Shown: piece by piece, positions 1 through 23,632 of the stretch
Position numbering within the stretch: the stretch's first letter is position 1
Layout: the number at the start of each line of letters is the position of its first letter
NCBI GenBank assembly: GCA_019828565.1
Contig: JAHDYR010000012.1
Span: 744,001-808,000, forward strand
Length of the DNA: 64,000 nucleotides
Origin: Carpediemonas membranifera BICM
Lineage: Eukaryota > Protista > Fornicata
Direction of reading: 5' to 3'
Translations under genes and position numbers: made by a program
Notes under the pieces: generated by a model
Databases searched by the model: none
The model's input: only the letters and a program-made list of their open reading frames with translations
Told to the model about the DNA's origin: nothing

Positions 1-3000
1 GCACCGTATTGTTCAGGGGGAAGAGGGTTGTCTCGGTCAATCGTGCGGATCATCATTGTGCCGAGCACCTTGTGGGCTGTGGAAAGTAGGGAGATAGGTC
101 TGAACGCCACAGGAGCATCGCTAGTAGAGCCGGGCTTTTTCAATGGAATTACCACGGCGGTATGCCACTCTGCTGGGGTCTTGAGTTGGTCAATGCACTT
201 CTGTAGCAGAGTCTTGAGCGCCTCCTTGAGGACTGGGCTATATTTGAAAATTGCCGGGGTTAGTCCATCACTGCCTGGGGCTGATCTATTCTTGGCAGAT
301 TTGAGAGCCCCTTCCAGGAGAGTGTCCGTGATTTCGAGCTCTATATCGGGGCGAGAGATGGATGGTTCTACTGCTCCTGCCACATATGATACTGACGCAT
401 ACCACTCCTCGAAGGCCTTGGCTACTTCTTCTCGGTTGGTGATCACTCTGCCTCCTACTGTGGTGGTAGCAGGAAGGCCGGGTCCTCTGAGTAAGCCTTC
501 CAGGTCTCTGCGAAGACCAGACACTCTGGCCTGCCCCTTCAAAAAGCTTCCAATGGACGTATCTAAAGAATTCAGGGGACATGACATCCATGCTCTCAGA
601 GACTCGCTTGGCTCGGGCATGGTAGGCTTTGAGTGTTGAGTGGGCGTGGCTCTCCGAGGATGCTAACGCTACTGATAGCATTGCTGATGATAGCTCAGAG
701 CACACGAGAGCTTTGGGGCCTCTGCTCGTCCTCTCCTTGAGCTGATGTTGGTGGCGATGATCCTCAATGATGAGCTCATAGAGCCGTTCAGGGGAAATAC
801 CGATCTGCTCTCCGGCGACAAACCAGTGGTCGTAGTCTTCTGCTCTCTCGACTTCTCTCACTTCATGTGAGGCCGCAGTGTCCACCAACGCCCATCGGTT
901 GATAGTCGACGTCAGGCTTTGAAAGGCTTGGTCGACATCAAGGTGGCTGATGTTCCTCAGGAGAGTCCTCGCCTTTCGATGATCCTTGCTGCATTCAAGT
1001 ACGTTAGCCACATGTCTTTCGTTGAGGACTGCTGTTGCCTTGCTCCTCGTGCGAAAGTAACCCGTTATGCCTGATCTTGCTACAACCGCTCTGTGTCCTT
1101 TGGGTTCAAGGGATACTGTGAGCGGCTTCTCGATGAGATCAGCCAGCTTAGGTGTTGCTGCGATGCCATCAATTACTCTGTCCATGAAGGTCGGGCCGTC
1201 GGGCACTACCAGTCTCAAGCCACACTCCTTTAGGGTGGTAGCCCACAGCGTCGATGGATCTAGTAGGTTCGTGTTGAAGTCTCCCATGACAAGAACTTGG
1301 AGCCCTTGCTCAATAGCTTTCTTCACCTCGGAGGACAGTAGAGTGTGGAACTCTTTCTTGGCTTGTGCTCCCGTGCATGGACTATAGATGGACATGACAC
1401 GGACCTTCAGTTTGCCAGCTGTTACAAACACGCAGCCTAGGTCAGCTTGAATCAACCTTGGAGAGTGGGGTTGGTTCTCGACGTATGTGCAGAGCTCAGC
1501 TAATTCCTTCCTCAGCATGATGCCTACGCCTAGATGCTTTGTCTCGGACTCTGACTTGATCACTCCGTGGTATAGCAGGACCTTGTCATTCGTTGTGGGC
1601 AGCTCCGGGGACTGGGCCCACCACCATAGCTCCTGAATGGACATGATGTCCACGTCTTGTACTAGAGCAAGAGTCATCTTGGTGATGTTGAGTGATGTGC
1701 AATTCCACGAGTAGAGGTGACCATTTACTGGTCGTCTACCTGCTTGACTTCGCCCTCTCTGATTCCTGAAGGTCGCAGGCGAGACTCGCGTGGCTAAGCT
1801 TGGAGCTGGCGTGGAAGAAGCCGGTGGCTCAACCTCACTCCAGTTACCGTCGTGAGCTCGGGCACTCTGGAGAGCTTTGAACACCGGAGAAAGGTCCCAC
1901 GCTTCGCTGACCCATGCTGTTTCTGCCTTCTGTATGAGGGCATCCATGTCTCCTCGAGTCATGGGCCCTCTCAGTCTGACTTTGCGGAGCCCTCGCACTG
2001 GCTTGTTGGGGATTCTCGGGACTAGAAACCAATGATCCGGCGCTCTGTAGGACCTCTTGACTACTCCTTTGGAGTTGTCTGCCGAGGGAGGAACGTTGAG
2101 AGCCAGAAGCTCTGCAGCAGATTGCGGTAGGTCTCGGTGAGGAGGGCACTCCCAGTAAACTTGCTGAGCCGTCAACTGATTGCTGAAGGAGCTGTCGTTA
2201 TTCACCGTCGCTATCCTGATGAATGGCTGTTCTAGGCTGTTTGGAGGGACTATGCCTGCCGCATCCGCCACCGCTATCATCTTGGCAAGAGGATCAAACC
2301 ATTCCCACCCTCGCCGAGCTGGGCTCCGCACTGCAATAAATTGACGGCGCGTCATAGCCTGTCTGGCCCTATCACCTGTGGGGAAGGAGCAGCCACCCTT
2401 AGGTGCTATTACGTACTCCTTGAGGATGTGGTGCAGCTCCTCAAGCGTTGGCAGGTGGAGGTCTTGGAGTAGTAGCACGGCCAGGTCGGGCAGGAGAGAG
2501 GACCAGTTGCCGATGAGGACATCCAAGTCTTTCCTCCATGCATCAGTGATTTCAGAGTACGTGGATGTGATAGCTCCCCTAGATGTTCGGTCGAGACATG
2601 AGACTGTGTGCAGTACCGCCGCGAAAGCTACAGTGTCACTGAGAGCACAATGGTAGCCTGGATCTGTTCCAATGTGGTACGGGCAGGGGCACTTCACCAT
2701 TGTGAGACATTGGGCTATCGACATCGCCTCAGAGAACTCGGGTGAACGGCAGTAGTCATGGATATGCCCAAAGGATCTTTTGTCTATGGACTCTAGATCA
2801 CTTATGTCATAGACCTTGTCAAGGAAGGGGGCATCGCTTTCCGAGACCCATGACTCTAGGACGGAGTTCTCAAGTCTCGGGTCTTTGGCGACCATGATGC
2901 AGTTCGGGAGGGAGCTCACTATGACCGTGAGGTGGTGAAGCCAGTCGGTCGGGCTGGGGAATGAGATCCCGGGGTGGTCGGGGTGTACTCTGAAGCTCAT

Positions 3001-4985
3001 GGGAGGACACCCATGAACAACTGCCGCTTGGTATAAAGCTGTCTGCATTAACTGCGCTGGGATATCAACTTCTAAGCCGCCCCAGTGGACCCCTGCGACG
3101 TCCCACATCATTATCCCCGTTTCAGGATCCTTGACGCGGGCTAGGAGTGTGGCGCCGGCCTCTACGGGATATGAGACGCGACTCTGTTTGGTGGCTCTGC
3201 GGTCTACGGCAGTTCCTAGTCCTTCAAAGTCGACCACTAGGATATGAGAAACAGGACCCTCTCTCTTGCCAGACAAGCCTATGAGAGCGCCATGGACGCC
3301 ATCACGGTTGTTGCGGGCCACACTAGAGGGGGCGCTATCGAGGCCTTCAGCGGCGATGTTGTTGCGAGCCACTCTAGAGGGGGCGCTATCGAGGCCTTCA
3401 GCGGCGATGTTGTTGCGAGCCACACTAGAGGGGGCTCTTCTTGGACGATATTCAGCATATTGCAGGCGCCTTGCTTCTGCGCTCCTCACAGACGGAAAAA
3501 GAGGCGTGAAGTGCAGAGCACTCAGTCTAATGAGGATGTAATCGGTTTTGAGCATCGTTTTGAGCGCGTCAATATTGAGAGGAAGTGTAGAGAACTCGGA
3601 TAATGCTGGGATGGTTACTGAGACTGTGTTGGCATCATATCGATGAGCAATAAGCACATTTTTTCCGAAGAGCGATGCAATATTGCGGAGGTCTGTGGTG
3701 GATAGGAAGGCACTACCAATGTCGCTAGCGGTGGTGTGTGTGGTTAAAGTGCGCACCGTGGATCTCCACGAGGAGTTAAGATCCACTGTACCATTCTGGA
3801 TGGCGGAGGCAAGTTTCGACACGGCTTCTCGTCTCGTCAGGCCCGTCATACCCAGAGAGACAGCAAGTGAGTGAAGGCCACAGTTGCCGTCGGCGTGAAC
3901 TGGGATGCTCATGAGAGGGCCCCAACGGGCGTTAGGCTCCTCAGCTACGATCGGGGATGATGGATAAATGCTGTTCTCTTCGCAAGACGATATTTCTTTC
4001 CGAATCTGCCGCGCAACCTCTTCCACGCTAACAGGGATCGGGCTTGCGAGCTCAACATCAGAGTTTGAACAGGAACTTATGGATATAGTAGAGTCATCGA
4101 CTGGATAGGCCTTCCGGCGAATGGGAGAGATAAGGCTGTCTGATAAGGTATTCGATAAGGAAGACTGAAGGTCGGCCGCTGTGGCTCCACCCCATTCGGC
4201 ATAAAGCTCAGTCATCGCATGTCCTCCCAACACGGGAGAGGCGCCATACAGTAAGTGGATTACCTCGAGGCCCATGAACGGCGTGAGGTTGAGACCATCC
4301 GGAGATACAATGGGGCCGGGCCGGCCGGAGTGAGCGATGCGGGGACCAAGAGGCTCTCTTTGACCGACTGCCTGCCATGTCAGGCTCGGAGAGTTCGGGA
4401 CAGTGGATATGGTTGGAGGCCAAGGATCGTTCCGTTGGTCTAACACTGTAGGGCATCTGGCGGAGATGAAATCTGCGAACTTGCTCCAGTCCATGCTGCT
4501 AGCTGGGGGAGTCCCGTGAACCTGCAGTGGATTAGGGCAGCCTTAAGCGTTCCAACCGTGTGGACAAGATCATAGGCAATGAGGGGAAAGAGTTTGAGGA
4601 TACCTTCCCGGATGGAGAGCCCAAATGCAGCTGCAAGGTGCTCAGCATCTTGGAGTAGGTCATTACAGGCATCCTTAGCCCGCTTATAGCGGGCGTTGTC
4701 CCGTTTTAGGTTTGGGATTGCCACCGAGACGAAATTGCCCGTCGATGAGTGTGTTGCAAGCTCAGTTTTGAAGGGATGGATGATTACGGGGTCCCCAATA
4801 AAGGCAATGCCTGCTAGTAGTTGTCTTTTGAGGACAGGAGGGGCGGATGAAACATATTTGAGGTGCTTCCTCGTCAGGAAGCGTTGGTCGGCGATACTGC
4901 TTTGAGCAGCAGTGGTACTTTGTGGTTGCGGACCAGTGTCTTTCGCTAAGATTGGGCCTCTGTAGCCAGAACTACTTTTGCCCAT
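1..4985 (-). CDS. LINE-A polyprotein: N-terminal region - OTU protease - MAEL/DEDDh exonuclease - unknown domain - APE endonuclease - RT (partial)
   Basis: ORFs 4440..4985, 286..4494 and the RT frame below ~540 join by single-base changes in homopolymers (G5 at 4505-4509, A5 at 541-545). OTU: HADGNCGLHSL...LHF (~3500-3915). DEDDh: VDFEG..PVE..CPYH..HCALSD (~2630-3246). APE: SWNC, IQEL, GVGI, IYSP, GDFN, IDGI, GH (~1085-1720). Confidence 0.85.
3307..3435. repeat. Coding tandem repeat, 51-bp unit x about 2.5 (APSSVARNNIAAEGLDS)
   Basis: Units start at 3307, 3358 and 3409; it forms the linker between the OTU and nuclease domains. Confidence 0.95.
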
Positions 4986-5021
4986 GGTGCGGAAATTTTT
5001 TTTTTTTTTTTTTTTTTTTTA

Positions 5022-6468
5022 TCGACGACTTCTTAGTGTCCCATGCCTCCCCATCGTACCTAGCTTCGGTCACCCCGCAGATCATCGACCTCATGCTATC
5101 GCTGGGGGCGATACCGGGCCTCAACAAGTGCGTCCTCACGCCGACCCAGCAGGTAGACTACCTAGGTGTCCACATAGACACCGCAAGCGAGTCCCTAAGA
5201 ATCTCAAAAGACAAGGCCGAGGCCTACACGGCCACGATCTCCAAGGCCCTCCGGGTCGGGTCCATCACAGCTTCAGACTGGCAGAAGCTCCTAGGCCGTC
5301 TGTCATTCTTCGCAGGGACCACACAGTTCGCCCGCCTCGCACTCAGACCACTGCAGGCCACCCCTACGACGGAGACCGTCCACCTCTCCAGCCAAATCCG
5401 CAGGCAGCTGGCGGCGTGGCAAGTCCTCCTCCGCGATCGCCCACCCAAGAGGTTCGCCGAAGCAAGAGCGGACTGGGAAATACGCGATACGCTCCAGATT
5501 TCTGTCACCTCAGACGCATCAACGTCCGGCTGGGGAGCATGCCTGTTCAATGGGGAGAAGGGAGCGGCATCACAGGGTGCCTTCCCCCTCATCTCAAGGG
5601 GGAACACATTGGCGTCAAGGAGCTCTTCGCGATCGCTCAGGCGATCAATCTCGTGCCCCAGCAGGAGTCACGCTCCTCTCTCACAGTCTTTGCCGACAAC
5701 TCAGCTGCCATCAGCTGGGTAAACAGACGGGGATCGCCGAACCTCCCCCCAGCCGCACACCAGATCCTACAGGACATCTACAACACGGCAGAAACCAAGC
5801 GCCTCGACGTCCACTGCTTCCATATTGCCGGACACCTGAATGTCCAGGCGGACAGGCTCTCCAGGTTCGCCAAGCTCGACTGGTCGTCACCCCGAGAAGT
5901 CTTGGAAACCATCATGCGCAAGTGGGGGCCGGTCGAGATCGACGTCACAGCACGCCCCGACAAGGTTCTGGCCTTACCAGGCTTTGCAGAAATAGCCTGG
6001 TCAATCCACGACAACGGCTTCCAGATGGACTGGAGGGGAGTCAGGATTTATATAGCTCCTCCTATAGCCCTTCTTGGAGTGACGTGTCGTCGCCTCCAGA
6101 CAATACGCGCCTCGACCCAGACTGGGAACCCTCGACACTGGAGATCAGCGGCGATAGTCCTGTGCCCGGACCTCAACTCGCCCGAGGTCCGAGCCATCAA
6201 ACGTTTGACACCCCTCAAGTTGTACCTCAGAGTCCAGGCGAAACACCTCCTGCAGTCCGAGCTAGCCTGGACAGCGACAGACAAGGGCAAGATCCGCTTC
6301 GTGGCGCTTATCCTGAGGACCCGTTCCAAGCCCTCCTCGCTGACGACCGACTATCACATTTCAGAAACGAATCGTCGCGCCGCACAGCAGCGGGCTGGGT
6401 CGCCAAATTCCTCCAATCCCGCAACGCGAGCCACTCACACGCGCAACAGCTCAAAGAGTTCCTTCTGA
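5022..6468 (+). pseudogene. DIRS-A RT-RNaseH-MT ORF, 5'-interrupted
   Basis: (YL)DDFLV, YLGV, SDAS..GWG, KEL, DN, ADRLSR, and MT-like WGPVEID..DW..YIAPP. One frameshift in the C run near 5585. Confidence 0.88.
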
Positions 6469-7226
6469 CCGAGGGTACCACGTCGGGCCCACAGTCGATA
6501 CACAGGAAAGGCTACTGGATTTGCGAGGCCGCCCCACTCGTGTCTGACTGGCGCCCCCCGATCGCTGCCAAGCAGATAATCGCCGCCGCCCGGAACGTCG
6601 CCTCTGTAGAAGGCCTGACCGGGGGTGCGAAGCCTGTCACGTCCGCGAGAGTCCGCAGGGTCATAGACAGACGTCGGAAGTCACCCCAAGCCTTCCAGGC
6701 CGCCCTCTTTTCTGCTCTCTGCTTTATCACCGTGAGTAGAGGCGCAGAGATCTTTGGGCTCAGACGAAGAGACGTCGAGTTCGACGCTGATGGCAATGCC
6801 CTCCTTCTGTTCGCGAGAACTAAGACTGCCACAGGCGTCCGCAAGCTGGTACCAAACCAATCGTGGGCCCGCTTTAACCCAGCAAGGGCCCTGAAGGCAT
6901 GGGTCCCCACGGCAACGCGCCGCGACGACGACCTCATCTGGCGGGAGATCACCTCAACCGGTGGTATTTCACTATCGAAGCCGCTACCGGCGTCAACCCT
7001 CCGCCACTGGATCCACCAGGCGTACGGCACCGACATTTCGTGGCACTCATTCCGCAAGGGCGCCACCACGGAGTTGGCGGTAGCCCACACGAGTACCGAA
7101 GTCCTCCTGTCCATGGGGACGTGGGCCTCCACGAAAAGCATGCTGAGATATATGGGCAACGGGGTCCGCACACACCCGGGGGTCCAGGGACACCTGGCCT
7201 CCATCCTTCTCCAACCACCACTTTAA
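5550..7226 (+). CDS. DIRS-A tyrosine recombinase (start uncertain; frame overlaps the RT ORF)
   Basis: Catalytic residues R (VSRGAEI), K (RTKT), HSFR, W (GTW) and Y (MLRY). Confidence 0.9.
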   Translation: MGRRERHHRVPSPSSQGGTHWRQGALRDRSGDQSRAPAGVTLLSHSLCRQLSCHQLGKQTGIAEPPPSRTPDPTGHLQHGRNQAPRRPLLPYCRTPECPGGQALQVRQARLVVTPRSLGNHHAQVGAGRDRRHSTPRQGSGLTRLCRNSLVNPRQRLPDGLEGSQDLYSSSYSPSWSDVSSPPDNTRLDPDWEPSTLEISGDSPVPGPQLARGPSHQTFDTPQVVPQSPGETPPAVRASLDSDRQGQDPLRGAYPEDPFQALLADDRLSHFRNESSRRTAAGWVAKFLQSRNASHSHAQQLKEFLLTEGTTSGPQSIHRKGYWICEAAPLVSDWRPPIAAKQIIAAARNVASVEGLTGGAKPVTSARVRRVIDRRRKSPQAFQAALFSALCFITVSRGAEIFGLRRRDVEFDADGNALLLFARTKTATGVRKLVPNQSWARFNPARALKAWVPTATRRDDDLIWREITSTGGISLSKPLPASTLRHWIHQAYGTDISWHSFRKGATTELAVAHTSTEVLLSMGTWASTKSMLRYMGNGVRTHPGVQGHLASILLQPPL

Positions 7227-7779
7227 ATCTCTGACGGGAGCTAGTGGCTGGGAGAGCTAGGTAGGGTGGGGCTGACACGCGTTACAACGGCAGATGTAAG
7301 CCACAACAGACATTCTTTGACGCGGTCTCTCGAGGAGACGGTCGGTTTGGGCTCGCAAGCGTGCCTGCAAGCCATTCCACTATGCTCGTTGCCGGTGGGA
7401 TATCCCCGTTGGGTAGAGCAAGTATGTCTAGAGGCTAGGACAGCTAGCTGGCGTTACATCGCGCTGACAGGTTACCTCGGGTAACGGGCCGTGAGCGGAG
7501 GGCAATGAGATCGCCTCGCTCCGGCATGGTGATGCGCCGACCAGGCGAGCCGCGCAGTTTATGCGGGCAGAATGGTAGAAAATTCGGAACATCCAGATCC
7601 GACGGCACGATACTGGTCAAGACCGGTATATCCGCCCAGTAGGTAAGCTGGCCGGAGTCCCCTGATCGTTTACACTAGCTCTCTTCTTTAATAAACGATC
7701 GCCCCCCGTTGGGTAGAGCAAGTATGTCTAGAGGCTAGGACAGCTAGCGCAGTTTAAGGATTCAGGAGAAGAAAACAAT

Positions 7780-10487: not shown

Positions 10488-10652
10488 GCGATTGTTTGTT
10501 CGATGTGAATTCGTGGTTTAGTGCATAACCTGCGGGACGGCTATTGACAGCCTGCCCGACCCTGCAGTACCCTGTATCGGTTGAACCACAGACGCTCAGC
10601 CACTCTCGGCGCCTGCCTGCCTTTCTCGGGCCCGAGCATCTTTGGGGGCAAC

Positions 10653-13600
10653 ATGCTCGCTGCTCTTCTCACTAGCTATGCCAAGACCAGTGACAGTGAA
10701 AAGCTCCCGAGCATACAAAAGCGAGTCTTAGACCTCATTCCGGTGATACGGTCACCGTCCGAGATCATTTCAGCAGAAAAATTTGTGATCGACCACCTAG
10801 GTGACCCTGAGCGTGCCATGGCCATCAGTATGATGATTCAGACGCTTTATCTACATCATGCTGCTGTTCTGGGCCCCACACGGTCACTTCCGTCTTTCTT
10901 ATCGATGCTGTCAATAACGTCATCCCCCACAACGCCCGCGAAGGTCCAGACAGCGGTGACACAGGCCGTCAAGGCCATCAGCGCCGTTGTGACAGCCGAC
11001 GACACTCGCCTCCAGGTTGTCCGGGCGGCGTGTGCCCGTGTGTCGGCCGACCTTGCCGCGACCCCCCTGCCCTCGACTCTGGGGTGTAACGTGGCCATCC
11101 TACGGCACATAGCGAACGCCAGCAAGGCAATCATGTGGACCCCGCCCAAAGAGCTGCTGGATAAGGCCGAGGCTGCCATTGACGGGCTCGACCGGGCGAG
11201 TGCGGACCCTGTCTGGGCCGGTGCCCTCATGCAGGCGTGTCTGAAGCTGTTACCCCCCGCCGACACGAAGAACAGGGACAGGATACTGATAGTGATGATG
11301 CGCAGGTGCCCCCGGACGGCCGTGCCGTCTCTCCGCGCGGCACTCCGGGCCGAGAGGGTCACACCGGGGCTCATCGGGGCGGCGACAGCCGTGTTTCACC
11401 AGCCCAGACCGCCCAGACACCAGCAGGTTGTGTCCACGTTGACCAACCGCGTGACTGCCGATGAGGGCGCGATGGCAGTCTTCGTCGAGTCCGTGCGGGC
11501 CTCCTACTGCAGCCGGGGCGACGGTAAGAACTCCGTCATGCCGTTCACCCTAGCCCTGTTCAACGCCGGGAACGCAGGGGCCGAGGAGACGCGCGCCCTG
11601 CTGGACTTCAGGACGAGCGGACACGCAGTGCCCCAGCTTGGTCGTGCCCTCGTTGACGTCGACCCGTCCAGCCCCAGCGGGCCCCATCTCAAGGTGCTGC
11701 ACCTCGCCATCGCGTCTCTGTCCGCGGGTGACGTCCCCAGCCATGCCCTGCGCCGGTTCCTGCCCAGGCCCAAGAGCGGACGGCACGCCCCGCTGCTGCC
11801 CGTGGTGGCCCGGCTCCTGGCCGAGCAGGGCGACCCCTTGTATGCCCGGTCCATCGCCCATCTGTGGGGGCAAGGCCGCGGGGTCGACCTGTCCGTCGTG
11901 CAGACCTTCCAGTTCCTGGCCGACCGGCCCCGGTTCAAACCGACCGCGGGCCTCGCCCCCTACATCGCAGCACTGGCCATCGGTCGGCCCAATGACAGCA
12001 GCCCCGGCCCAGCCCCTGCTGCACTGGGCGATCGCTGGTCCGTGGGGTATAACGAGTTCGTGGTGGCCATCGGGGCGGGTCTGGGGATCGACCAGAGCAG
12101 GGAGACCCTCGTGGACATGCTCGCGGCCACGGGGCAGGCTCTGGTGCGGGACCAGGTGGCGCTGTCTACGGCCGAGGTGTCCGAGGCTATCGTCGCGGCC
12201 CGTTTCCCTAATCTCAACCGCATGCCCTGCTTCCAGATCCTCGACCGGCTGCTGCAGGCCGTGCCGACCTCGACTACATGGCCCAATGACATCGCTGCCG
12301 TCACGGCGGTCGAGCTGGTCGCCCAGATTCACACGAGAGCCCTCGCCCTGCTGGCCGGGGCCACCAGCCCGCCCCTGCGGCACGCTGTCGGCGTCGACGT
12401 CCTCGCATGGGTGCGGTCCTCGGCAGTGGGGCTGATCAGGGCTGCCCTGCACATCGGATCGTTCGCTGCGGCCGCCACGGCTGCATTCATCCAGAGCACG
12501 CACCTTAAGGACAAGCTCGAGCGGTGTGGCGCCCTGGGGCTCTGTTCGCCGCCATCAGTCGGCACGGCGAAGAGCAGCGTTCCGTCGATCGCGGGCTTCG
12601 TCGCGCTTAACGTCCTCGAGTGCGCTGCCCTGCAAGCAATGGGCCACAACGCGCGGGCGGCGGGTGTCCTGGCGCAGCTGGAGCACCACACGCTGGCGCC
12701 CTCTGTCGGGCAGGCCGGCCATGACACCCTGGCCCTGGGGGTCCGGCTGTGCTCCGACCTTGCCGCCGTCCGACCCGACGACGTGGGGCCCCTTGTCGAG
12801 ATGTACCCGCCCTTCCCCGTGCCCGAGTTCCTGCATGTCTGCACCGCACTCGCCCTGCTGCAGCAGAACGCCAACCCCCCCGCCATCACTGGTCTGCCCC
12901 GCTGGCCCAAGCGGTCGGCCCCGGGAGGAGGCGGCTGGACGGGGCGAGTTGTCGCGGCGGGGCTGCTCAAGGGCGGGAACCAGCGCTGCCTCGTTGCCCG
13001 GGCGTATTCGCTGCATGCCTCGGCCTTCAGCGGGGTGGGTGCGCTTATCATCCGGCAGGCACCCCTCAGCACTCCCCTCTCCCTTGGACCCCGTCCCACA
13101 GCCGCGCCGGTCATTGCCGCAGACGTCGATGCTCTTATTGCGGCCGGCAAGCCCGCGTCTGCTGCCATAGCCCTGTCAGCCGAGGCTACCAGATCCGGGG
13201 TCGCGGCCGTCACGGACCGGGTCATGGCGATCGCCCAGTCGGGTCCCCAGGGCCGGTCCGTGCTCGACCGGCTGCTGCCCCTGCTCGTCGATTCCGCGCA
13301 CACCGCTGACGGCGCCGCCCTACTGAGAGCCGTCGCCGCGGTCGTGCCCGACTCTGTGAGGGTGAGGGCGCTCGCCCGGGCCAACACCTCTGGTGATCTC
13401 CCCCCGGTGTCGGTCGACCCCCGCTTCCAGGAGCTTCACCACTCGCCCCTGGAGCGGCTGTGCTTCTCACACCGGACGCCCCTCCTCAGCAAGGACGGCG
13501 GGCTGCTCCGGGCGTCGCTGCCATTCCTGGACTCCATCGACCTCCAGACGGCCATGGCCCCTGTCCGACGGGTTGCGACGTGGATGTCGTCCTTTGACCC

Positions 13601-15218
13601 GCAGCCTGGCTCCGTTATCACCGACGCCGTGACGCACGTCGAAGACCTCGTCGAGTCCGTCCTCGCCAGCCCCACCCGGTCGAGGCGAGCGATCCTCGAC
13701 ACTCTCGTAGCCTACCTCTTCGACCTGCCCCGCATCATCGAGGGCGCCCTCCCAGTCGGGCACCAGGCGGTGGGACCCGTGACGATGTCCGTGCCTGGCG
13801 TCGGGAAGGTCACCGTCGACGGGTGGCAGTCCCTCGAGACAAAGACACGCCCCAAGCTCGTCGGGCTGGGTCATGGCCGGTCAATGCTGGTCAAGTCCCG
13901 AGACGACCTCAGATCGGACGAGCGCGTCCTCACTCTGTTTGAGTCGATCGCGGAGCTCACAGGATTACCGGTCGAGACGTACGCCGTGACACCAGTCCGG
14001 GACGCGGTGCCGTCGTCACAGGCGATCGGCGGCGGCATCGTCGAGATCAGGCAGGGCTTCACGCCCCTCTTCACCCTGCTGCCGCCCGCTGCCCTCGCCA
14101 AGGCCATCTCAGATCCCGACAGCCGCAGTTTCGTCCGCCTTCCCGCGGCCCTGGCCGAGCTCGCCGTGGGCTCTAGGGCGCCCGTCCCGGATCCCATGCC
14201 CGCGGAGCTGGCGGGGCGGGTGTACCGGAAGGCGCGGTCGATGGTCGACCCCCTCATCGGGCTGTACCACCTCTCGGCCGCAAATGCATCCTCGGAGCGG
14301 CTCCTCGCTGCCTGCGATCGGGCCCTCCAGACGTCGATTGTCCCCTCGGCGGCCGGGACGCTGGTCGACCTCAGAGACCGTCACCTCCACAATATCATGC
14401 TGGCGGACAACGGGTCGGTGCTCCACATCGACCACAGCGTCACATTCGGCACGGACCGGCTGCTGCCCCACCCGGACACCGTCCCGTTCCGTCTCACAGG
14501 CATCATTCAGGGGATCGTCGGACCCGGCGGCGTCGGCGCTCTTGCTAGCGGTATCGACGACGTGTTTGCAGCGGTCGACCGGCCCACTATCGTCGATGGC
14601 CTGCTTGCCCCCCTGTGCGGCGGCCCCGGCCTGTCCGCCTGGGACTCACCTCACCGCCGGGCCGAGCTCGCCCGCTGCCAGCTGCTGACCCACACGGCCG
14701 CCGTCCTGGCCGCAATCCCCGACTTGTCCGCGCGGGATGCCTTCAGGTTCGAGGGGCGGTTTGAGACCGAGGCCGAATCCACGTTCGACCGACGCGTCCA
14801 GGGCCACCGCATGGCAGTCGCCCGATTCGCGGCTGACTGCAGGGAGCTCGTCGCTGCCATGCGCCGCGTGTGCGAGCTACCGGCCGCGGCCGAGCATACG
14901 TGGGAGGGCGACTTTGCCCGTGAGGCCCGCACCGTGTTGGCGTACATCGACCGCTGGTCTGCGGCCGACAGCGATGTGCTGGACTCGCCCAGCTCGGCAC
15001 TGACGGCCCTGAAGACGCTGGCGGCATCGATACCGCGCCATATCGTCACCGCGGGGACAACGAATGACTGCATTGTCAACAATGACGAGTCGAGCCGCCT
15101 GGACCGCTTCATGACTGCGGCAACTGGGCCATGTGAGGCCGGCTGGGACCTGGTGCGGCGTGCAACGGACCCCGAGACGCTGGCGGCCGTCTACAGCGGC
15201 TGGGTCGGGTACGTCTGA
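10653..15218 (+). CDS. SMG1: PIKK-family kinase, SMG1-like, shortened and divergent
   Basis: TKTRPKL, VKSRDDLRSDERV, DRHLHNIML, HIDHS, VPFRLT, and FATC end ATDPETLAAVYSGWVGYV. TKTxPK and DERxxx are SMG1-type motifs. First ATG at 10653. Confidence 0.78.
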   Translation: MLAALLTSYAKTSDSEKLPSIQKRVLDLIPVIRSPSEIISAEKFVIDHLGDPERAMAISMMIQTLYLHHAAVLGPTRSLPSFLSMLSITSSPTTPAKVQTAVTQAVKAISAVVTADDTRLQVVRAACARVSADLAATPLPSTLGCNVAILRHIANASKAIMWTPPKELLDKAEAAIDGLDRASADPVWAGALMQACLKLLPPADTKNRDRILIVMMRRCPRTAVPSLRAALRAERVTPGLIGAATAVFHQPRPPRHQQVVSTLTNRVTADEGAMAVFVESVRASYCSRGDGKNSVMPFTLALFNAGNAGAEETRALLDFRTSGHAVPQLGRALVDVDPSSPSGPHLKVLHLAIASLSAGDVPSHALRRFLPRPKSGRHAPLLPVVARLLAEQGDPLYARSIAHLWGQGRGVDLSVVQTFQFLADRPRFKPTAGLAPYIAALAIGRPNDSSPGPAPAALGDRWSVGYNEFVVAIGAGLGIDQSRETLVDMLAATGQALVRDQVALSTAEVSEAIVAARFPNLNRMPCFQILDRLLQAVPTSTTWPNDIAAVTAVELVAQIHTRALALLAGATSPPLRHAVGVDVLAWVRSSAVGLIRAALHIGSFAAAATAAFIQSTHLKDKLERCGALGLCSPPSVGTAKSSVPSIAGFVALNVLECAALQAMGHNARAAGVLAQLEHHTLAPSVGQAGHDTLALGVRLCSDLAAVRPDDVGPLVEMYPPFPVPEFLHVCTALALLQQNANPPAITGLPRWPKRSAPGGGGWTGRVVAAGLLKGGNQRCLVARAYSLHASAFSGVGALIIRQAPLSTPLSLGPRPTAAPVIAADVDALIAAGKPASAAIALSAEATRSGVAAVTDRVMAIAQSGPQGRSVLDRLLPLLVDSAHTADGAALLRAVAAVVPDSVRVRALARANTSGDLPPVSVDPRFQELHHSPLERLCFSHRTPLLSKDGGLLRASLPFLDSIDLQTAMAPVRRVATWMSSFDPQPGSVITDAVTHVEDLVESVLASPTRSRRAILDTLVAYLFDLPRIIEGALPVGHQAVGPVTMSVPGVGKVTVDGWQSLETKTRPKLVGLGHGRSMLVKSRDDLRSDERVLTLFESIAELTGLPVETYAVTPVRDAVPSSQAIGGGIVEIRQGFTPLFTLLPPAALAKAISDPDSRSFVRLPAALAELAVGSRAPVPDPMPAELAGRVYRKARSMVDPLIGLYHLSAANASSERLLAACDRALQTSIVPSAAGTLVDLRDRHLHNIMLADNGSVLHIDHSVTFGTDRLLPHPDTVPFRLTGIIQGIVGPGGVGALASGIDDVFAAVDRPTIVDGLLAPLCGGPGLSAWDSPHRRAELARCQLLTHTAAVLAAIPDLSARDAFRFEGRFETEAESTFDRRVQGHRMAVARFAADCRELVAAMRRVCELPAAAEHTWEGDFAREARTVLAYIDRWSAADSDVLDSPSSALTALKTLAASIPRHIVTAGTTNDCIVNNDESSRLDRFMTAATGPCEAGWDLVRRATDPETLAAVYSGWVGYV

Positions 15219-17220
15219 GGGCTCAGTGACAGGCCCAGGTCGCGAGCTGATATAAAGGCAGGCATGTGGGTTGAGTTCTATTCCACTTCTCCCTCTTCAA
15301 TGGTGGATTTCCCAATCCAATTGTATTCTGTAGAGACCAAACTTAAGCTCCAATCACACCGTGGAGATCACAAGTGCGATAGATAAGAAGAGACGGGTGT
15401 TCTCGGATAGTGAGAGAGGCCATCAGAGCTGCTGTGTGCTGGTGAACGGCTCGGGCCAAAAACAACAACAACAAACAGGAACAGAGACGGCAAGCAGCGA
15501 GGGCCTGCCAGGAACGATGCTCAGATTCCCCATTTTTTGGTTTTCTGTTGGGTTGAGCTTGGGTGAAAAGCTGCCGATTTCATCATCAACGATAGTCGAA
15601 TCAACGCAAAATGTATCCTGTGATTCCCGCTAACATCAATAGTGAGTAGAATCTGGGCTGATCGCCTTAATATTACCAAATTTTTGACAAATAGTGTGTG
15701 CACTATTGTCGAAGCCAGAATAAATGACGCATTCATTCTCGACTTCATGCGTCATAATTGTATTGATTCTCATGGCCTATGGGATTGAGACGCGAATACG
15801 TTTTGGTCTTATGATGGACCAAGGGGCCTCCGAGAAAGATATAATGAAGCAACTCGGCATAATAAGCCGGTCAACAGTCACACGTTGGAAACGGTTGTAC
15901 TATACGCACCAAGGAACGATCAAGAAGCGGAAGCGGGAACACAAATCGACTATGAAGCACGACAAGTTGATAATGCGAGCTGTTGCTAGGTGCGAGGATG
16001 AAGACAGACAGTTCACTGCTGCTGATCTTCGAGGCATGCTAGCAGGCTGGGTAGAAGACCCTCCCTCCGTATCTCACCTCCGCCGCTGGCTCAAGAAGCA
16101 CCGCTACAACTACAAGCTGGGCCTCAAGATGTGGTATGAGAGCGACCCCACACGTATCGGTGAGTTCTGGGCCGAGTACGCCACGGTAATCCGCCCTCAG
16201 CACGCGTTCAAAGATCTTGTCTTCTTAGACGAGACCTCCTTCGACCCCCATCAGGCACGAACCAAGGGGTGGATGGCCGTGGGCGACTCGGTGAGCAGGG
16301 CCAGCGGGAAAGTTGTGGAAAGAAAAGAAAGAAATTTATGGTGCTTGGATTCTGACCCCGGACTGAGCTTGTTTCCCGTTGTCTTGGAGCTGAGTGCCCC
16401 GGGGTACTGCCTATTTCCCGTGGCAAACTGGTCAGCAGCGTTTGCCTTGGGCTTTCGGTGCTACTGTCTCCGCGGAAAGCCGATTCCAATCGCCCCAGAG
16501 GCCCTGCGGCCATCTCCGTGCAAATATGCTTTCCTGTCTCCCTGAAAGTCCGGCAACTATCCGGGGAGCCTGGGGGTCTGTCCTCGGGGCATTGACAGGC
16601 AGGATCGTCCTGCAGAACCTTGACTATGACACTCCTTGCTTCCCTGCAGTCCTTGTAGAGCCGTTCAGCCACGGCACCCTCTCGTCTGTCCGGTTCCCCA
16701 ATTCCATGCCCCCTCGACTCTGTTAAGAGGCCTACCCGAAGGCGGGGAAAGTGAATAAGTCCATGCTGTCTACCCCGGTTAGGTGGCGTGGGTCAGCGGC
16801 AGCCCCAGGCACTAGGCCTGGTTGTCCTGTTACCCCTTACAACATTTCGCTTGCACTACATGTCCTTGGTTTCCCATGTCGTTAACAAGGGCGGCAGGGG
16901 CACCTGTGCCCCTCCGACCCCCGTGGCCAGTCCCTGCAGTTTCCTTGGGGTCCCAACGAGTGGTGCAACCATATGAATATGGATTTCCTTGACCTTATCC
17001 TTGCTCTGTCCTTGTTGCATGTCCTTTCTTTCTTATTTCTGGTCTGTCCTTCCTGTTAATTCCTTGCAGTCGTTCCTTCCCTTGCTTTGGTTCCTGGCTA
17101 CCGGGATACGTGGGGCCTTTCCTCACTGATCCCAGGAGCTTAGCACCAGCGAGGGTGGTCCATGGCTGATTCCTTGTCCATCCCCTCCCGGTCCTGGAGT
17201 CAGGGGTTCATGACATGCTT

Positions 17221-18339
17221 CTATTCCACCTTGAAGCTGTTGTAAACCTTTGCCAGTTCCCGTAGTCCTGCCGTGAGGCCTTCCCAAATGTCTATTTCTG
17301 TCCATGGGGTTCGCTGGAGTTCGCTCCACACTCCGTTCCCGAACACTTTGTCCCTTGCCTTTGCTCCCCTGTTGTTCACTGGGTCGCCCATGCATGCTCT
17401 TATAGTCTCTTCCCATTGGTCCGAGCTCTTGATCCTGTTCAGCTTTGAGACTGTGACTGGCCCCTCCTTCTTTTTCATGGGCCAGGTGTGCACCTCGGGT
17501 ATGGCCAGAGCCACGTCTCGCTCACTTCTGCCATAGTACCGTTGTTCCTTCCATGCTAGTGTGATTCCATTGTGTGCTGAGCCCCATACCCCGACCTTCT
17601 GAGACTCTACCACCTCAATCTCCGCCCCCTGGATTCCTGGTGTTGTCACTGCAAAGTCCGGGGTTGATGTTCCTGATGTGAGCGTCCCAGACTTGGGTAT
17701 GATGGCTTTGAGCCTGTGCTTCTCCATCATATCCTTCCACCGGGTGGATCTTTCCATCTGGCCTGGGTCGATGTTCCAGTCTCCCATAATTATGGCCTCC
17801 ATGCTCCCTTTCATGTCCATGATCTTCTGTATAGTGTCCCTGAATCCATCCTTCTCCTGCTTGCTGTGGCCGGATGGAGGGCCATACACGTTGATGACTA
17901 GTATGTCCCTGCCGGTTCTCATTATGCTGGCTTGCACTCTTCCCGATAGGCTGTCCGTTATGCCGATGTCCCACTTTGCAGTTGCGTGTGGGCTCACTCT
18001 CGTGCCGATGCCTTCCCTTGTTCCCTTCCATCTTGGCGCAGGTTCGTCATTGCCTGCTATGCCTAGTTGTCGGTTGATGCGGTGCTGACTTTTGACATCC
18101 GCCTTTCGTTTTTCGTTGGCTAAGACCAGGTCCTCTTCCGTCTCCCTCCCTGCTAGTGCGTAGTCAAGGTCCATGAAGCAATGAACCCTCGTATTCGCCG
18201 TTCTCCATGTCTCTTGTATGAGTACTGCCTCTATGTCCTTCAACCTTAGCTGAATCGCCGTTGCCATAGACGCCGTGAAGTCCTTTCCTCTTCCTATGTG
18301 TCCCTCTGTGTTCAGACTAAGTATCTTGTAGGTTACCAT
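17221..18339 (-). CDS. LINE-B ORF2: APE endonuclease fused in frame to the extreme C-terminus, RT absent
   Basis: LSLNTEG, IQETW, GIG, NVYGP, GDWN, PDF, SAHN; no RT motifs. Confidence 0.9.
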   Translation of the reverse strand: MVTYKILSLNTEGHIGRGKDFTASMATAIQLRLKDIEAVLIQETWRTANTRVHCFMDLDYALAGRETEEDLVLANEKRKADVKSQHRINRQLGIAGNDEPAPRWKGTREGIGTRVSPHATAKWDIGITDSLSGRVQASIMRTGRDILVINVYGPPSGHSKQEKDGFRDTIQKIMDMKGSMEAIIMGDWNIDPGQMERSTRWKDMMEKHRLKAIIPKSGTLTSGTSTPDFAVTTPGIQGAEIEVVESQKVGVWGSAHNGITLAWKEQRYYGRSERDVALAIPEVHTWPMKKKEGPVTVSKLNRIKSSDQWEETIRACMGDPVNNRGAKARDKVFGNGVWSELQRTPWTEIDIWEGLTAGLRELAKVYNSFKVE

Positions 18340-18669
18340 TGCCTTTGTCCTGTTTCCTTATCCTGCGAATTCCCAGAATTTGGGAGCCCCAGCTTCCCGC
18401 TCCTCTCCTGCTATCCTTGTCCTAACAAGGGGCCTAGATGCCGGTCTCGGTGACCCTTGTCAGGCCAACCTTGTTACCACCTGGTGACCTTCCATTCTTC
18501 GGGCAGGGTACTTAGGAGGGGACGATATGACGTGACCCCCCTTTGGCTGCCGCTACAGCCTACCGGCAGTGCATTTCAGCTAATGCCGGGCCCTGGGTGG
18601 GAGCCAGGGCTTGTGAATTATAAAGAAAATGTTGCTTGTTCCTTGAAAGAATACTGCTTTACCATGTCC

Positions 18670-21600
18670 TTACTCCTCCTCCGTGGACTCCCCACTGCCG
18701 CTGCAGCTGTCCTCGGCCTGACTCACTTGCTGTCCTTGTAGACTCTGCATTACCGTGATGAACTGGGTCATCAGGTCCATGGGTGAGATCTGCTTGGCCT
18801 TCTTAGCCTTCTTGTGCTTGTGCCGGGGGATCGTGGGCTTCTCCTTGCTGGGCTTAGTCGCGACGCCGGAGAGCACCAACCTTCCGTGGCCTTGCTCTTG
18901 CATGAGTCGGGCAGCCTTGAGCGCTGAGATCTCTTGTTGCGCCTCTGCCAACTGCTTTCGGAGCCGCAGCTTCTCCGAGTCCATGCCGGTTGCCTGTCTG
19001 CTTCCAGACTCCCAGTCCATGTCCTCTTCGTGCCTGCTTCTCTTTCCGCTGTCCGAGTCCATGATCCTACTCGTGCTGCCCTCCTTGCGCTTGAGCGTCG
19101 TGGAGGAAGAGTGATCCTTGCTGTTGTCCATGCCTCCCTCTGAGCCTCTACCGGCCCAGGTGTTCCCGCTGAACGAGCCTCTCATCTGCGTTCCCGTGTT
19201 GTCCTGTCTCTCCCTGTCGTCTCCTCCGTGGTTACGATCCGAGGTCCTGTTCATGTTACCAGCTCTGTCGCCGGTTCTGTCGTCAGCTCTGACACCAGCT
19301 CTACCGCCGGCTCCGTGTCCTACCCTTCTGTCCTCTTCCCTGTCTCCATGCTGGTCGTGATGTCCTTGATCCGCGTCCTGGCCGAAGTGCCTGCCCACCA
19401 TCCTGGTGCTAATCCGCCTCGCCTTTTCCTCCAGGCCGTTGTCGAAGAACCTACTTTGGTATGGCTGTTCGGACTTTCCGTCGATGGTGGGGACATACGT
19501 GATGCCTGGGACATTGACTGTGTTGGCTCTGGGCTCGTCCGGGATAGCTGCCGAGACTAGTCTGGCCCCTTCCTTGCGCATGCGGCTTAGGATGGTCCCA
19601 GCCTCGCTGACCCTGACCATGCCCCAGTCTCTCGGGATGAAGCTCGCCCCTAGGGTGATCCTACCCCTGTTCCTGGGGGCCTTGACGTTGACTATGACCT
19701 TCTCATAGTCCCTGAGGCTCTCTGCTAGGTCGTCGCAGCCCCAGACTCCTTGATGAGCCGTAGCCTCCTTCGAGGGCCACCACTCGTATAGCATGGCCAT
19801 GGTTATGATGTCCTCCTCCCTTGCTGCCCCTAGGCCCTTCCTGACGCGTACCATGCGGAGCTGGTTAGCCGTGGCTCTTCCATGATGGTCCATAGCGGGC
19901 TTCTCTCCAGTACACCTTCGTTGTCCATGATTGTGAGGGGGGGCCAGTAAGATGCCCTTCATGCCCAACAGAACCTCCCCGAACCCGAAGCCGATGCCGA
20001 AGCGGTGTCCGTTGTCCGGGACTACGAGGATCCTGTCGCCGACTTCCCTGCTGACGTCCCTTGCGTCCCCGATCGGGTACGTGCCGAAGATCTCAAAGGT
20101 GTCCCTCCTTGTCGCGAATTCCGGGCCTCCCATGATATCCATGCCCGGCTCCGCCTTCCCGACTGCTTCCATGGTCTTGTCGAGTGCCTTACCCATGTAG
20201 TGGTAGACGTCTGGGGTGCTCATCCTCTCCTTGCATAGGGCCCTGATCCTGGCTGTGAAGACTACTGTATCCGCCAACCCACAGTGGTAGCAACCCGCGG
20301 TGTGTCTGTGGTACGGACAGACTCCCTTGGGCTCGCTCCTGTTCTGCCATCCATTTGACCATGTTGTTACTGCTTCCAGGTAGTTGGCCTTGTCGAGGTT
20401 GTCCCTGAGGTTTTGGCCAGCCTCCTCCTTGCCGTTGTTCTCCAGGATCTCTGGTAGCTTCTTCTCGTCCACCAGCCTAGCTTGGAAGAATTCCCTGGTT
20501 CCTTGCTCCAGTCCATTTGTGGGGTTCGTGAGGAGGAAGCTTTCCATCTCCACCCCCTTTGCATACATGATTATCTTCCAACCCTCCGACCTTTCGATCC
20601 TTGCCAGCTGAGCCGCCAGGCGGTTGGCCCAGTCCCTGAAAGTATGTATGTGCTTCTCATACTCGATCGGCGGCCGCCCCGTCCCGACCTCCACGAAGGT
20701 GGCCGGCGGCAGCCCCGTCACTGCCCATGCCGTGTACCTCGCTTGGTCCATGCTTGCTGCCGGTATGTCCTGGTAATACAGGCCATGCCCGTGTCCAAGA
20801 ATGTCCCCAGTGCTGAGGTCAAAGAGTACGATCCCGCCCTCAACCGGGATGGCAGGGATCCCTGCCTTCTTGACGCCAGGGTCTGCGCACTCGAAGTCGA
20901 TGGCTCCGATCACCAGTCGTTTCTCCTTGTCCTTTCTAGGCATCCTCGGCGGCTGGCTGCTGACCTTGTTTGAGTCGACCTCCTCGTCCTGGTCGATCTT
21001 GCCTTGGTTGGCCCCGACCATGTCCTTGTTCACTTCCAGGAGGCTGTCGTCGAGGCTTCTTCTGCCGGGCATGGTGGCCTGCTGGCGTCGTTCCTCCTTG
21101 TCCTTGACATGTTGCTCCTCGTCTCCGTCGATGACCGTGCTAGCGGACGACCTGTCCAGATCGGCATGTTCGTCCCTATTGCTGCGGACCGAGGTGGCCT
21201 TGAGCACTTCCAGCCTCACCTTCCGGAACGGCGGCTCGTTGCTAAGGGGGTCTCCTCCCCTTCGCCCAGGATATTGGTTCTGCCCTTCAGGTAGATCCCT
21301 GACTTGTTCCATGCTGCCTGCCATATGGCCGGGGCCTCCGGTGCCTGAAGCCTGAGGATGTCCCTAGCCTCCTCCATGAAGCGGCTGATGGACCATGCTG
21401 ACGTGTCGCTTAGCTCTAGGATGACCCTGTACTTGCCGTCCTCTTGCTCGTAGGCCACTCTGGTGACCGGGCCTTGGTTTGCCGGATCCCATACCTTGTC
21501 GTAAGGCACGCCTTCTACGGCCTCGTCTCCATGAGCCCCTGATACCAGTATGAACGACCCTTCGGCCTTCTTGACGCTGTCCCTGTCTACATCCCATTCG

Positions 21601-22172
21601 ATGGGCCCATCTTCCTTCGGCTTGAGGATCGCCGTCTCGATGTCCTTCTCAGATGGCCATCTTGCCATGCCAGTGAAGCCCGCTTTCAGCGTCTTGGGCT
21701 CCAGTGCCTGTGCCATGTCCTTTGCTTCCTCGTCTCTGGGGTTGAGCGCCTCTGTGAGCATGTAGAAAAGGTCGCGGAGGCCGTGGATGCCGCATGGGTT
21801 CCTGAGGATGATGTCCTTGTTGTCAGTGACGCCGGTTGCGAAGAGGATGCGTCTGGCGTTCATGATTACTTCCTTGCGTCCTTTGGAGTTCGCATTGAGC
21901 GACTTTCCTGTAAACTTGCCTGTTCTACGAAGAAGTAGAGTCCTTGAATCGTTCCTTTCAGCGAGGAAGCTGTCCAGTAGTTCCCTGATGTCCTCCCACT
22001 GCTTCTGCGTGGAATCCCTGATCCTTGTCGGTATTTCTACCTGCATTGTTGAGTGCAAAATTTCTCCCCTTTTCCTAGTCCATAAACTGGGTCGGAATTT
22101 TTGGGTCCGAAAGTCGGGCCACATGTACATATCCGGGTGAGGTCTCCGTCCAGGCCTTCCAGTTTCTCCCAT
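18670..22172 (-). CDS. LINE-B ORF1 (about 1167 aa consensus) with MAEL/DEDDh exonuclease domain
   Basis: One frameshift in the G run near 21246, intact in copy 2. Motifs IDFEC..PVE..AKGVEME..CPYH..HCGLAD at ~20265-20916. Confidence 0.85.
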
Positions 22173-23161
22173 TGTCCATGCTCCGAACTATATAGGCCAT
22201 TCTTTCAAAAAGGCGCGGTCCTAAAAATGCGTCGCCCTTTTCTGAGTAGCGGGGCCTTTCTGTGTAGTTGTTGTTGCTTTGTTCGTAGTCTCCTTTTAGC
22301 CTCTATCGACGGCCCCTGTTTCCCTTTTGTGCTGCCCTTCCTTCCTTGTGGTCTTGACAAAACCATGTAGCCGCCGGTGCTAGCACTGGCCCTCGACGGT
22401 TGTTTTCCTTTTCCTTGTAAACATACGTTCCATGAAGACACTTTGATTCCTTGGTATGGGCGTGGAGCTCCCACTCGCGCCCAGCGGTATGCCCTGATAG
22501 CAACCCTTGAATGTTCAGACAGGAGGCCAAGGCCGCTCCTTCTGAGCTCCATGGGGCACTGCCCTATCCATATAGGCCAGGCCTGTTGGTCCTTGTCCAT
22601 CCATGATCGAAGTGTTTCCACTTTGCTGAAATCATTGGTGAACTGCGGGAAAGTTGTGGGCAAGCGCGTTTCAGTATGCGCCCTCCTCGGCGTAAATGGG
22701 ATCATAGACCGGGCTATCACCGAGGGAACGTACAACGCGGACGACTTCTTTACTGTTCTACGTCGCTTCTTAGAGCGTATCCGCGGTCAGCACAAGGTCA
22801 TGGTGCTCGATAACGCACGGAGTCATAAGACGGGACGCGCTGAGCTGTATGAGCCACTGAGCAAGGAGTACGGAGTAACCTTCTTCTTTCTACCTGGCTA
22901 TGCTCCTTTTTTGAACCCCATTGAGACAGTGTTTGCCTGTGTGAAGAGAGAAGTGATCAAAAACCGTGGCAGGAACGAAGATGCCCTGCCATACATCACC
23001 GAAGCCTTCGATAGCGTGTCAGAACTTGTCAACTTGCCCGCATTGTTCCGTAAAGTGGGGTATTGGTAAACGTGCAGTTTATGTCATCACCTCCAAGGCG
23101 CCATACACGGACCATGGGCAACACTGAGGATAATAAACGATCAAGAGGTGCAACCAAAGGT

Positions 23162-23632
23162 TTATTCTTCCACGTCGTCTTCCTCTGTACCGTCCAACCC
23201 AGACGCATCCAGCGCCTGAGATGGTGAGACAGTACTGACGCGACCAGCTGCCAGGCGCCTGTTGTGTAGCCACGTATAGAGATCAGCTACTGCTTCAGTA
23301 GGCACAGGAACATGCACGAAGCTTGCGTCGACTGGAAGAGCCGGTGGTGATGATACAGAGATGAAGGACCCGGATGACTGGGATGATGAACGGCTGTATT
23401 CGCGATGCGAAAGGCCCATTGGAATCTCAGTCATATCTGCCTTGTCGAGGATAACTTGAACCGCCCATGAAGCGATTCTCTCAACCGGAAGGCGCTTCGC
23501 TGTCCCATTCGCCGTCAGTATGTCTCGCATTGTCCCCAAAATGCTACACCCACCATCTAGCTTGTTTTTAAGGGTAACAAGCGGGCAGGTTCCGGCGTGA
23601 TGGCCTGTTGCGCGGCATATAGTACAAGGCAT
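23162..23632 (-). CDS. Passenger ORF of the DNA transposon with an N-terminal CCHC zinc knuckle
   Basis: CTICRATGHHAGTC (CX2CX4HX4C) and an acidic tail; lies inside the TIRs, convergent with the transposase. Confidence 0.75.
   Translation of the reverse strand: MPCTICRATGHHAGTCPLVTLKNKLDGGCSILGTMRDILTANGTAKRLPVERIASWAVQVILDKADMTEIPMGLSHREYSRSSSQSSGSFISVSSPPALPVDASFVHVPVPTEAVADLYTWLHNRRLAAGRVSTVSPSQALDASGLDGTEEDDVEE

Follow-up and report, generated by a model that had tools for sequence, protein, structure and literature searches.

Analysis of a 64,000-nucleotide stretch of the genome of the fornicate protist Carpediemonas membranifera BICM (contig JAHDYR010000012.1, positions 744,001–808,000 of the forward strand; here called the window, with positions counted from its first letter) revealed a nuclease domain carried by two families of long interspersed nuclear elements (LINEs), LINE-A and LINE-B, which are retrotransposons without long terminal repeats (non-LTR). 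From structural models and a zinc motif, the domain is predicted to represent a divergent, protist-type family resembling the nuclease domain of Maelstrom (MAEL), and its catalytic and zinc residues are intact. Purifying selection acts on it, and it has been kept in many diverged families.

In LINE-A, the domain spans 2587–3258 on the minus strand, inside an open reading frame (ORF) at 286–4542. Its motifs, read on that strand, are VDFEG at 3234, PVE at 3168 after a spacer of 17 residues, HGCP at 3015, AKDPRLE at 2889, CPYH at 2685 and, after a further seven residues, HCALSD at 2652. The predicted catalytic residues are Asp (3231), Glu (3225), the ExoII Glu (2871), His (2652) and Asp (2637), and the predicted zinc ligands are Glu (3162), Cys (2685), His (2676) and Cys (2649). 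Two copies of LINE-B carry the domain. In copy 1 (20227–20919, minus strand, within ORF1), the motifs are IDFEC at 20901, followed after 13 residues by PVE at 20847, then TGLP at 20718, AKGVEME at 20562, CPYH at 20319 and, seven residues on, HCGLAD at 20286. Copy 2 (31005–31690, plus strand) has matching motifs between 31023 and 31656, and a one-base shift at 31496, in a G run, breaks its frame. The motifs quoted in the first-pass annotation of this DNA are all in place, except that the first LINE-A spacer had been given as 16 residues.

Comparison of the LINE-A and LINE-B domains, of about 220 residues, gives an identity of 29% and a tblastn E-value of 6e-13. Their local alignment score of 140 was reached by none of 1000 shuffles, which scored 29.9 ± 4.6. 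At the DNA level, blastn with a word size of 7 found no match longer than 14 bases between the families. We conclude that, as judged from their sequences, the two nuclease domains are homologous, in families for which the first-pass annotation had noted no DNA-level similarity. Across all six frames, the window has three instances of the C-terminal zinc/ExoIII pattern, every one in these domains; 200 base-shuffled windows have none. The predicted catalytic set is D-E-E-H-D in both families, with Glu as the ExoII acid.

A search of 1.84 billion representative proteins with a two-domain profile at E ≤ 0.001 gave 15 matches: eight named C. membranifera proteins, six from short contigs and one spurious match, P0016, a repeat protein without the motifs, which was dropped. 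P0004, 99% identical to part of LINE-B ORF1, was excluded from the alignments, and P0001 was added through word-based searches. P0003 of C. membranifera combines the nuclease with an apurinic endonuclease-type (APE) domain in the same layout as LINE-A, the nuclease domain being 54% identical. Two further loci, L001 and L002, came from a second assembly through a metagenome scan with P0006. They have no DNA similarity to the window and encode a B-type ORF1 with the nuclease and, about 300 bases further on, the beginning of an APE ORF akin to the LINE-B APE (E 5e-8 and 1e-7). MAEL and APE are thereby found together in P0003, L001 and L002, but the L001 and L002 contigs stop within or just past the APE start, ahead of any reverse transcriptase (RT) position. 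As regards genomic context, which was considered for homologues other than P0007, P0008, P0009 and P0013, the true homologues found so far all appear to belong to elements. P0011 is a piece of a LINE-B-type ORF1, although its source names it 'Splicing factor U2AF'. No viral protein and no host MAEL is among the homologues from the profile, word-based and metagenome searches, and scans of viral contigs, prokaryote genomes and a first metagenome set returned no homologue.

In alignment A4 of these domains, the first catalytic Asp is present in 11 of 12 rows, the first Glu in all 12, the ExoII Glu in all 13, the His in 12 of 13 and the last Asp in all 13; the ExoIII motif is H-x4-D, of the DEDDh and not the DEDDy type, in 12 of 13 rows. 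The predicted zinc-binding Cys, His and Cys are each kept in 13 of 13 rows, and the zinc Glu in 11 of 11 covering rows of alignment A3; P0008 and P0009 are misaligned at this position in A4. This retention is seen at pairwise identities of 23–54% in 35 of 36 pairs, with 69% in the remaining one. Between L001 and L002, the ratio of non-synonymous to synonymous substitution (dN/dS) is 0.27 for the nuclease (213 codons, dS about 1), 0.18 for APE, 0.33 for the ORF1 N-terminus and 0.36 for the ORF1 tail. A tree of nine domains is unrooted, with no outgroup, and is uninformative on the direction of transfer.

These data bear on the idea that the domain is mainly an RNA-binding module of the ORF1 protein, in which catalysis is incidental, as in metazoan MAEL. 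Bombyx MAEL is inactive and binds single-stranded RNA at about 130–220 nM (PMC4408791), the ORF1s described here have no RRM or CCHC match, and P0002 and P0012 have each lost one catalytic residue in A4. Metazoan MAELs, however, have lost the acidic residues, whereas the five catalytic positions are kept here down to 23% identity, and we regard a chiefly binding role as quite unlikely.

Predicted fold and relation to Maelstrom

AlphaFold2 models of the A and B domains, built from 14- and 16-row alignments, have a predicted local distance difference test (pLDDT) score of 82 and predicted template modelling (pTM) scores of 0.81 and 0.79, respectively. Both models take the DEDDh fold, and their matches in Foldseek and VIA-align are DEDDh exonucleases throughout; with the catalytic and zinc residues intact, the earlier recognition of DEDDh residues combined with a Glu-Cys-His-Cys (ECHC) zinc signature is borne out. 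In Foldseek, RNase T was matched at an E-value of 4e-7, and the top TM-score among the rows listed was to Drosophila MAEL (4ybg), at 0.60 for A and 0.52 for B. In VIA-align, run against 48,161 PDB representative chains, MAEL ranks 2, 4 and 11 for A and 1, 2 and 13 for B, with Z-scores of 10.6–12.8 over 168–189 residues, and these alignments are the longest of all (179 residues for A, 189 for B). For the A model, the top group within 1 Z unit comprises RNase T, DinG and MAEL (Z 12–13). For the B model, MAEL takes the first two places (Z 12.1 and 11.7), within 1 Z unit of DinG, RNase AS and ERI1. The arenavirus nucleoprotein (NP) is found at ranks 25–32, with Z-scores of 8.0–8.9 over 144–150 residues; the first-pass description of the domain as Maelstrom/arenavirus-NP-like is therefore upheld for MAEL, while NP is the less similar of the two. 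Because RNase T and the DinG exonuclease score level with MAEL, the assignment to MAEL rests on the zinc motif together with the fold.

In Bombyx MAEL, the zinc ligands are E137 on strand 2, C290, H293 and C302, and R306 stands at the last catalytic position (PMC4408791). In the LINE-A model, the first Asp and Glu lie on strand 1, a Glu lies on strand 2, and C192, H195, C204 and D208 follow with the C-x2-H-x8-C-x3-D spacing of Bombyx MAEL, H203 being the predicted DEDDh base; LINE-B is alike. The C-x2-H-x8-C part precedes the last helix, and in secondary structure, too, the ligand positions agree with those of Bombyx MAEL. Compared by eye with the sequences in supplement 1 of PMC2628886, Entamoeba MAELs have the same C-x-Y-H-x7-H-C-[AG]-L-x-D ending, with YHCALSD identical, and trypanosomatid MAELs have the KG..M[DE] ExoII motif in common with the LINE family, which has Glu. 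The two extra histidines of MAEL (the EHHCHC set), correspond to positions, assigned by eye, at which His is found in 9 and 5 of 12 rows, respectively; LINE-A has one of the two, and so has LINE-B.

Sequence resources were less specific. The Pfam Maelstrom family PF13017 matched neither the window domains nor 16 homologues, and we therefore file the domain as MAEL-like and not as a PF13017 member. PDB sequence searches (phmmer and profile) and a PHROGs search did not place it. A PDB match at an E-value of 0.002, to a designed helical protein, was rejected, as was a single weak V-ATPase match in NCBIfam. In the ESM Atlas, the domain is surrounded by generic exonucleases of phages, giant viruses and bacteria, PF16473 and PF00929 among them, and BFVD gave generic phage and giant-virus exonucleases, with nothing more specific.

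The missing MAEL match in sequence profiles and the generic ESM Atlas neighbours would suit an unrelated DEDDh exonuclease, of the RNase AS, RNase T or viral type, with a convergent zinc site. We consider this very improbable: the four predicted zinc ligands lie on the same structural elements with the same spacing as in MAEL, further protist-MAEL motifs are held in common, and MAEL gives the longest structural alignments for both models.

The near tie also touches on substrate. RNase T, DinG, DnaQ and TREX1 score level or nearly level with MAEL, and in the A-type elements (LINE-A, P0003) nuclease and APE are in one ORF, both of which favour a 3'-5' exonuclease working on DNA or RNA/DNA hybrids at the insertion site, whether in flap trimming, in cDNA proofreading or in removal of template RNA in place of RNase H. 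The ECHC signature, however, occurs in RNA-acting MAEL and arenavirus proteins and is absent from those DNA exonucleases (PMC4408791, PMC7968707), and the B-type nuclease is in ORF1, away from APE and RT. An insertion-site function is, in our judgement, unlikely.

Candidate roles of the nuclease

We consider it plausible, though short of probable, that the domain serves in counter-silencing, as a MAEL-like exoribonuclease that travels with the RNA-protein particle of its own element and removes antisense RNA or small guide RNAs paired to the transcript. The domain is situated in ORF1 of the B-type elements and in the long ORF ahead of APE in the A-type elements. The L1 ORF1 protein binds its own mRNA in cis, and if the ORF1 proteins here behave in this way, a nuclease held by the ORF1 protein would sit on the element transcript in many copies. 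There it would clear antisense or guide RNA from the transcript, to the benefit of the element that encodes it, using a predicted two-metal active site (D-E-E-H-D) in a fold with a predicted structural zinc site (E-C-H-C). The arrangement would parallel that in arenavirus NP, in which RNA coating is coupled to a related nuclease. Exoribonuclease activity is suggested by likeness to Entamoeba MAEL, which has both motif sets and is an active Mg/Mn exoribonuclease, and host MAEL functions in transposon silencing (PMC4408791). The arenavirus NP exonuclease suppresses innate sensing (PMC7968707).

Ahead of the nuclease, LINE-A also encodes a pair of motifs, DGNCG ... HFTP, at 3502–3912 (minus strand). 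From the shape of the motifs, this region may be an OTU-like cysteine protease, a domain type used by viruses against host defence. P0003 has a decayed-looking counterpart of the motif pair.

Several observations weigh against counter-silencing. The OTU-like region is without a match in Pfam and PDB. RNase T and DinG, with which MAEL is tied within 1 Z unit, also act on DNA; to this are added the failure of PF13017 to match and the finding that no host MAEL is among the matches of the two-domain profile in the 1.84 billion proteins. Regarding host RNA interference (Argonaute, Dicer, Piwi), the literature searched, with a term search of PMC8516963 and 10 of its 11 supplements, is silent either way. 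Entamoeba MAEL degraded single-stranded RNA and not double-stranded RNA (PMC4408791), and in Lassa NP a projecting basic arm works on the second RNA strand (PMC7968707). The loop from the zinc His to the catalytic His in the LINE domains is merely seven residues, so that a Lassa-type basic arm is missing. That arm is presumably located in the zinc-ligand loop of Lassa NP. Finally, long-term conservation in every family would be expected of a core replication step no less than of a function in an arms race.

The main rival invokes such a step: the nuclease would trim the 3' end of the element's own transcript to a protected structure, leaving a defined end, free of poly(A), as required by RT for target-primed reverse transcription. 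An equal role has been put forward for the rotifer DEDDy ORFs (PMC5408684), and the single-strand exoribonuclease activity of Entamoeba MAEL (PMC4408791) would fit it. All three LINE-B copies end at the identical point in a short (TTTC)n tail without poly(A), and the constraint on the nuclease (dN/dS 0.27) is near that on APE (0.18). Set against this, LINEs without an exonuclease often end in short tandem repeats too, the LINE-A 3' end falls beyond the window, so that the ends seen are those of LINE-B only, and if an RNA-coating protein present in many copies bore a single-strand nuclease without restraint, the element's own RNA would be at risk. We allow that 3'-end trimming is possible but incline against it.

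If counter-silencing is taken further, a lineage of metamonad LINEs would have turned Maelstrom, a fold with which hosts oppose transposons, into a silencing suppressor built into the ORF1 protein, as a counterpart of arenavirus NP, and might also form a mobile reservoir linking host MAEL and the arenavirus exonuclease. This wider scenario seems to us conceivable but doubtful. Should silencing suppression prove true, it would provide a defined enzymatic counter-defence in a LINE.

The present findings add an ORF1 type and a cargo enzyme apparently undescribed for LINEs. The first-pass annotation knew of no described LINE clade with this domain, and in the literature searched, which did not extend to Repbase, Dfam and most subscription papers, we saw no non-LTR retrotransposon bearing a MAEL-type or DEDDh domain; exonucleases in other retroelements are, however, known (PMC5408684). 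The MAEL/ECHC nuclease has been described in piRNA genes of hosts, in certain protists and in arenaviruses; here, in the host–transposon conflict, it stands with the transposons. A third branch is thereby available for the question of MAEL–arenavirus exonuclease kinship, as are a dozen small, probably active MAEL-type enzymes with which the substrate of the ancestral MAEL nuclease can be probed.

Element architecture and surroundings

The main ORF of LINE-A (286–4542, minus strand; 1418 residues) comprises the OTU-like motifs, a 17-residue repeat, the MAEL-like domain, a conserved region and APE. The conserved region, downstream of the nuclease at approximately 2010–2586 (minus strand), is kept in B-type ORF1s and weakly alignable in the A-type. 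APE lies at approximately 1030–1720 (minus strand; Pfam PF03372, E 1e-6). A linker and the start of RT follow in another frame at 3–662 (minus strand), ending at the window edge, and this RT start matches human L1 ORF2p with an E-value of 8e-5. From this order of APE and then LINE-type RT, we conclude that LINE-A is an APE-type non-LTR retrotransposon. An N-terminal ORF at 4440–4985 (minus strand), with its ATG at 4985 and no family match, overlaps the main ORF. The frame change between them falls at a C run and is possibly a sequence error, so the element may encode one polyprotein. At the 5' junction, a run of 25 A residues on the sense strand of the element (4996–5020, minus strand) is followed by a 10-base leader and the ATG; the run may derive from the target, act as a leader, or have been the tail of a tandem copy that has since disappeared. 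A DIRS RT gene is broken by LINE-A at 5022.

LINE-B is present in three copies. Copy 1 (16319–22644, minus strand; 6.3 kb) is flanked by a 15-bp target-site duplication (16304–16318 and 22645–22659) and sits in an IS630/Tc1-like transposase gene, pieces of which lie at 15724–16318 and 22645–23180 on the plus strand. Its ORF1 (18670–22187, minus strand) is in two frames; the change occurs in a C run near 21250, a point at which copy 2 continues in frame. In its ORF2 remnant (17221–18339, minus strand), APE (PF14529, E 4e-7) runs in frame directly into the final 22 codons. Copy 2 (29279–35990, plus strand) is 373 bp longer than copy 1 after APE, and a search for its target-site duplication found none. 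About 100 bases of IS630/Tc1-like flank adjoin its 5' end, and it lies where a duplicated aldolase region is broken. Present in copy 2 only is a C-terminal piece with the pattern CxxC ... HxxxxC (34635–35078, plus strand), without a Pfam match, which resembles the Cys/His knuckles of LINE ORF2 C-termini. Copy 3 (41904–43951, plus strand), with a 14-bp target-site duplication (41888–41901 and 43952–43965), is 5'-truncated and is without ORF1 or the MAEL domain. In ORF1 and the following spacer, all five single-base length differences between copies 1 and 2 fall in C or G runs, and homopolymer length differences are the pattern expected of long-read errors.

None of the three copies, each of which ends in the (TTTC)n tail, contains a Pfam RT, a tblastn match to the LINE-A RT piece or a YxDD-type motif. 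The description of two LINE families holds in that both domains are in non-LTR elements, but since RT is absent from all three LINE-B copies, we reject LINE-B as an autonomous element and conclude from its sequences that the copies are mobile non-autonomous derivatives retaining ORF1 and/or APE. Loss of RT as a mere deletion after insertion was also rejected: copies 1 and 3 have the same deletion and different target-site duplications. The two RT-less forms (34634–35007 in copy 2; 17292 in copy 1) have a common 5' breakpoint and different 3' breakpoints, and the bases of copy 2 directly before the rejoining point of copies 1 and 3 are AG. Alternative splicing of transcripts from a single parent, followed by retrotransposition, could have given rise to the two forms.

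Elsewhere in the window, two families of DIRS-type tyrosine-recombinase retrotransposons are present as several near-identical pieces, at 5022–7748, 23842–27950, 38823–41288 and 49268–50420, and at 35764–38839. One DIRS ORF has a weak Dam methylase match (PF05869, E 0.015), in agreement with a Carpediemonadida DAM clade listed in the excerpted part of a preprint (bioRxiv 10.64898/2026.05.21.726589). Ty3/gypsy LTR retrotransposons occupy 45297–49276 (minus strand) and 50599–54067 (plus strand), and one of the two has a chromodomain. A stop-free ORF of 1556 residues at 10548–15218 (plus strand) has a C-terminal part which, from its motif, we take to resemble a PI3K-related kinase. A class I aldolase gene is partly contained in near-identical duplicated blocks at 26190–29181 and 49268–56304, and such blocks suggest that this element-dense region was recently rearranged or is affected by an assembly problem.

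Comparison with known systems

The closest likeness is to protist MAEL, as represented by EhMael of Entamoeba histolytica (PMC4408791, PMC2628886), with which the LINE domain has in common the DEDDh fold, the ECHC spacing, the catalytic set and a nearly identical C-terminal motif. It differs from EhMael in being retrotransposon-encoded, in its ExoII Glu, in lying beyond the reach of PF13017, in having the extra histidines only in part and in lacking an HMG box.

The arenavirus NP exonuclease (Lassa 3r3l, LCMV 4o6h) likewise has the DEDDh fold and the ECHC site. In NP the nuclease is joined to a protein that coats RNA, and a like arrangement is suggested for the LINE ORF1 protein by its position. 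The LINE domains differ in scoring lower against NP than against MAEL and in their short loop without the basic arm, and the LINE ORFs have no nucleocapsid Pfam match corresponding to the NP core domain.

HAL1 and HeT-A are non-autonomous LINE derivatives that keep ORF1. LINE-B resembles them in being RT-less, in its target-site duplications and in its 5' truncation, and additionally keeps APE.

Retroelement-borne 3'-5' exonuclease cargo is also found in rotifers, in the DEDDy ORF3 of Juno/Vesta LTR and Athena/Terminon elements, and some Vesta exonuclease ORFs have a Cys-His-Cys motif (PMC5408684, PMC6431247). The rotifer enzymes, as described there, are of the DEDDy (RNase D/mut-7) type, are encoded by separate ORFs of LTR and Penelope-like elements and evolve near-neutrally within the genome. 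The LINE domain, in contrast, is of the DEDDh/MAEL type, forms part of ORF1 or of the main ORF in non-LTR elements and is under purifying selection. A captured enzyme in ORF1, likewise with a coiled-coil-like region, has a precedent in the esterase-type (type IV) ORF1 of CR1/L2/RTEX LINEs (PMC4120745, PMC5408684). In none of the ORF1 types I–IV, as described in the excerpted part of PMC4120745, is a nuclease included; in the elements described here, the captured enzyme is a nuclease.

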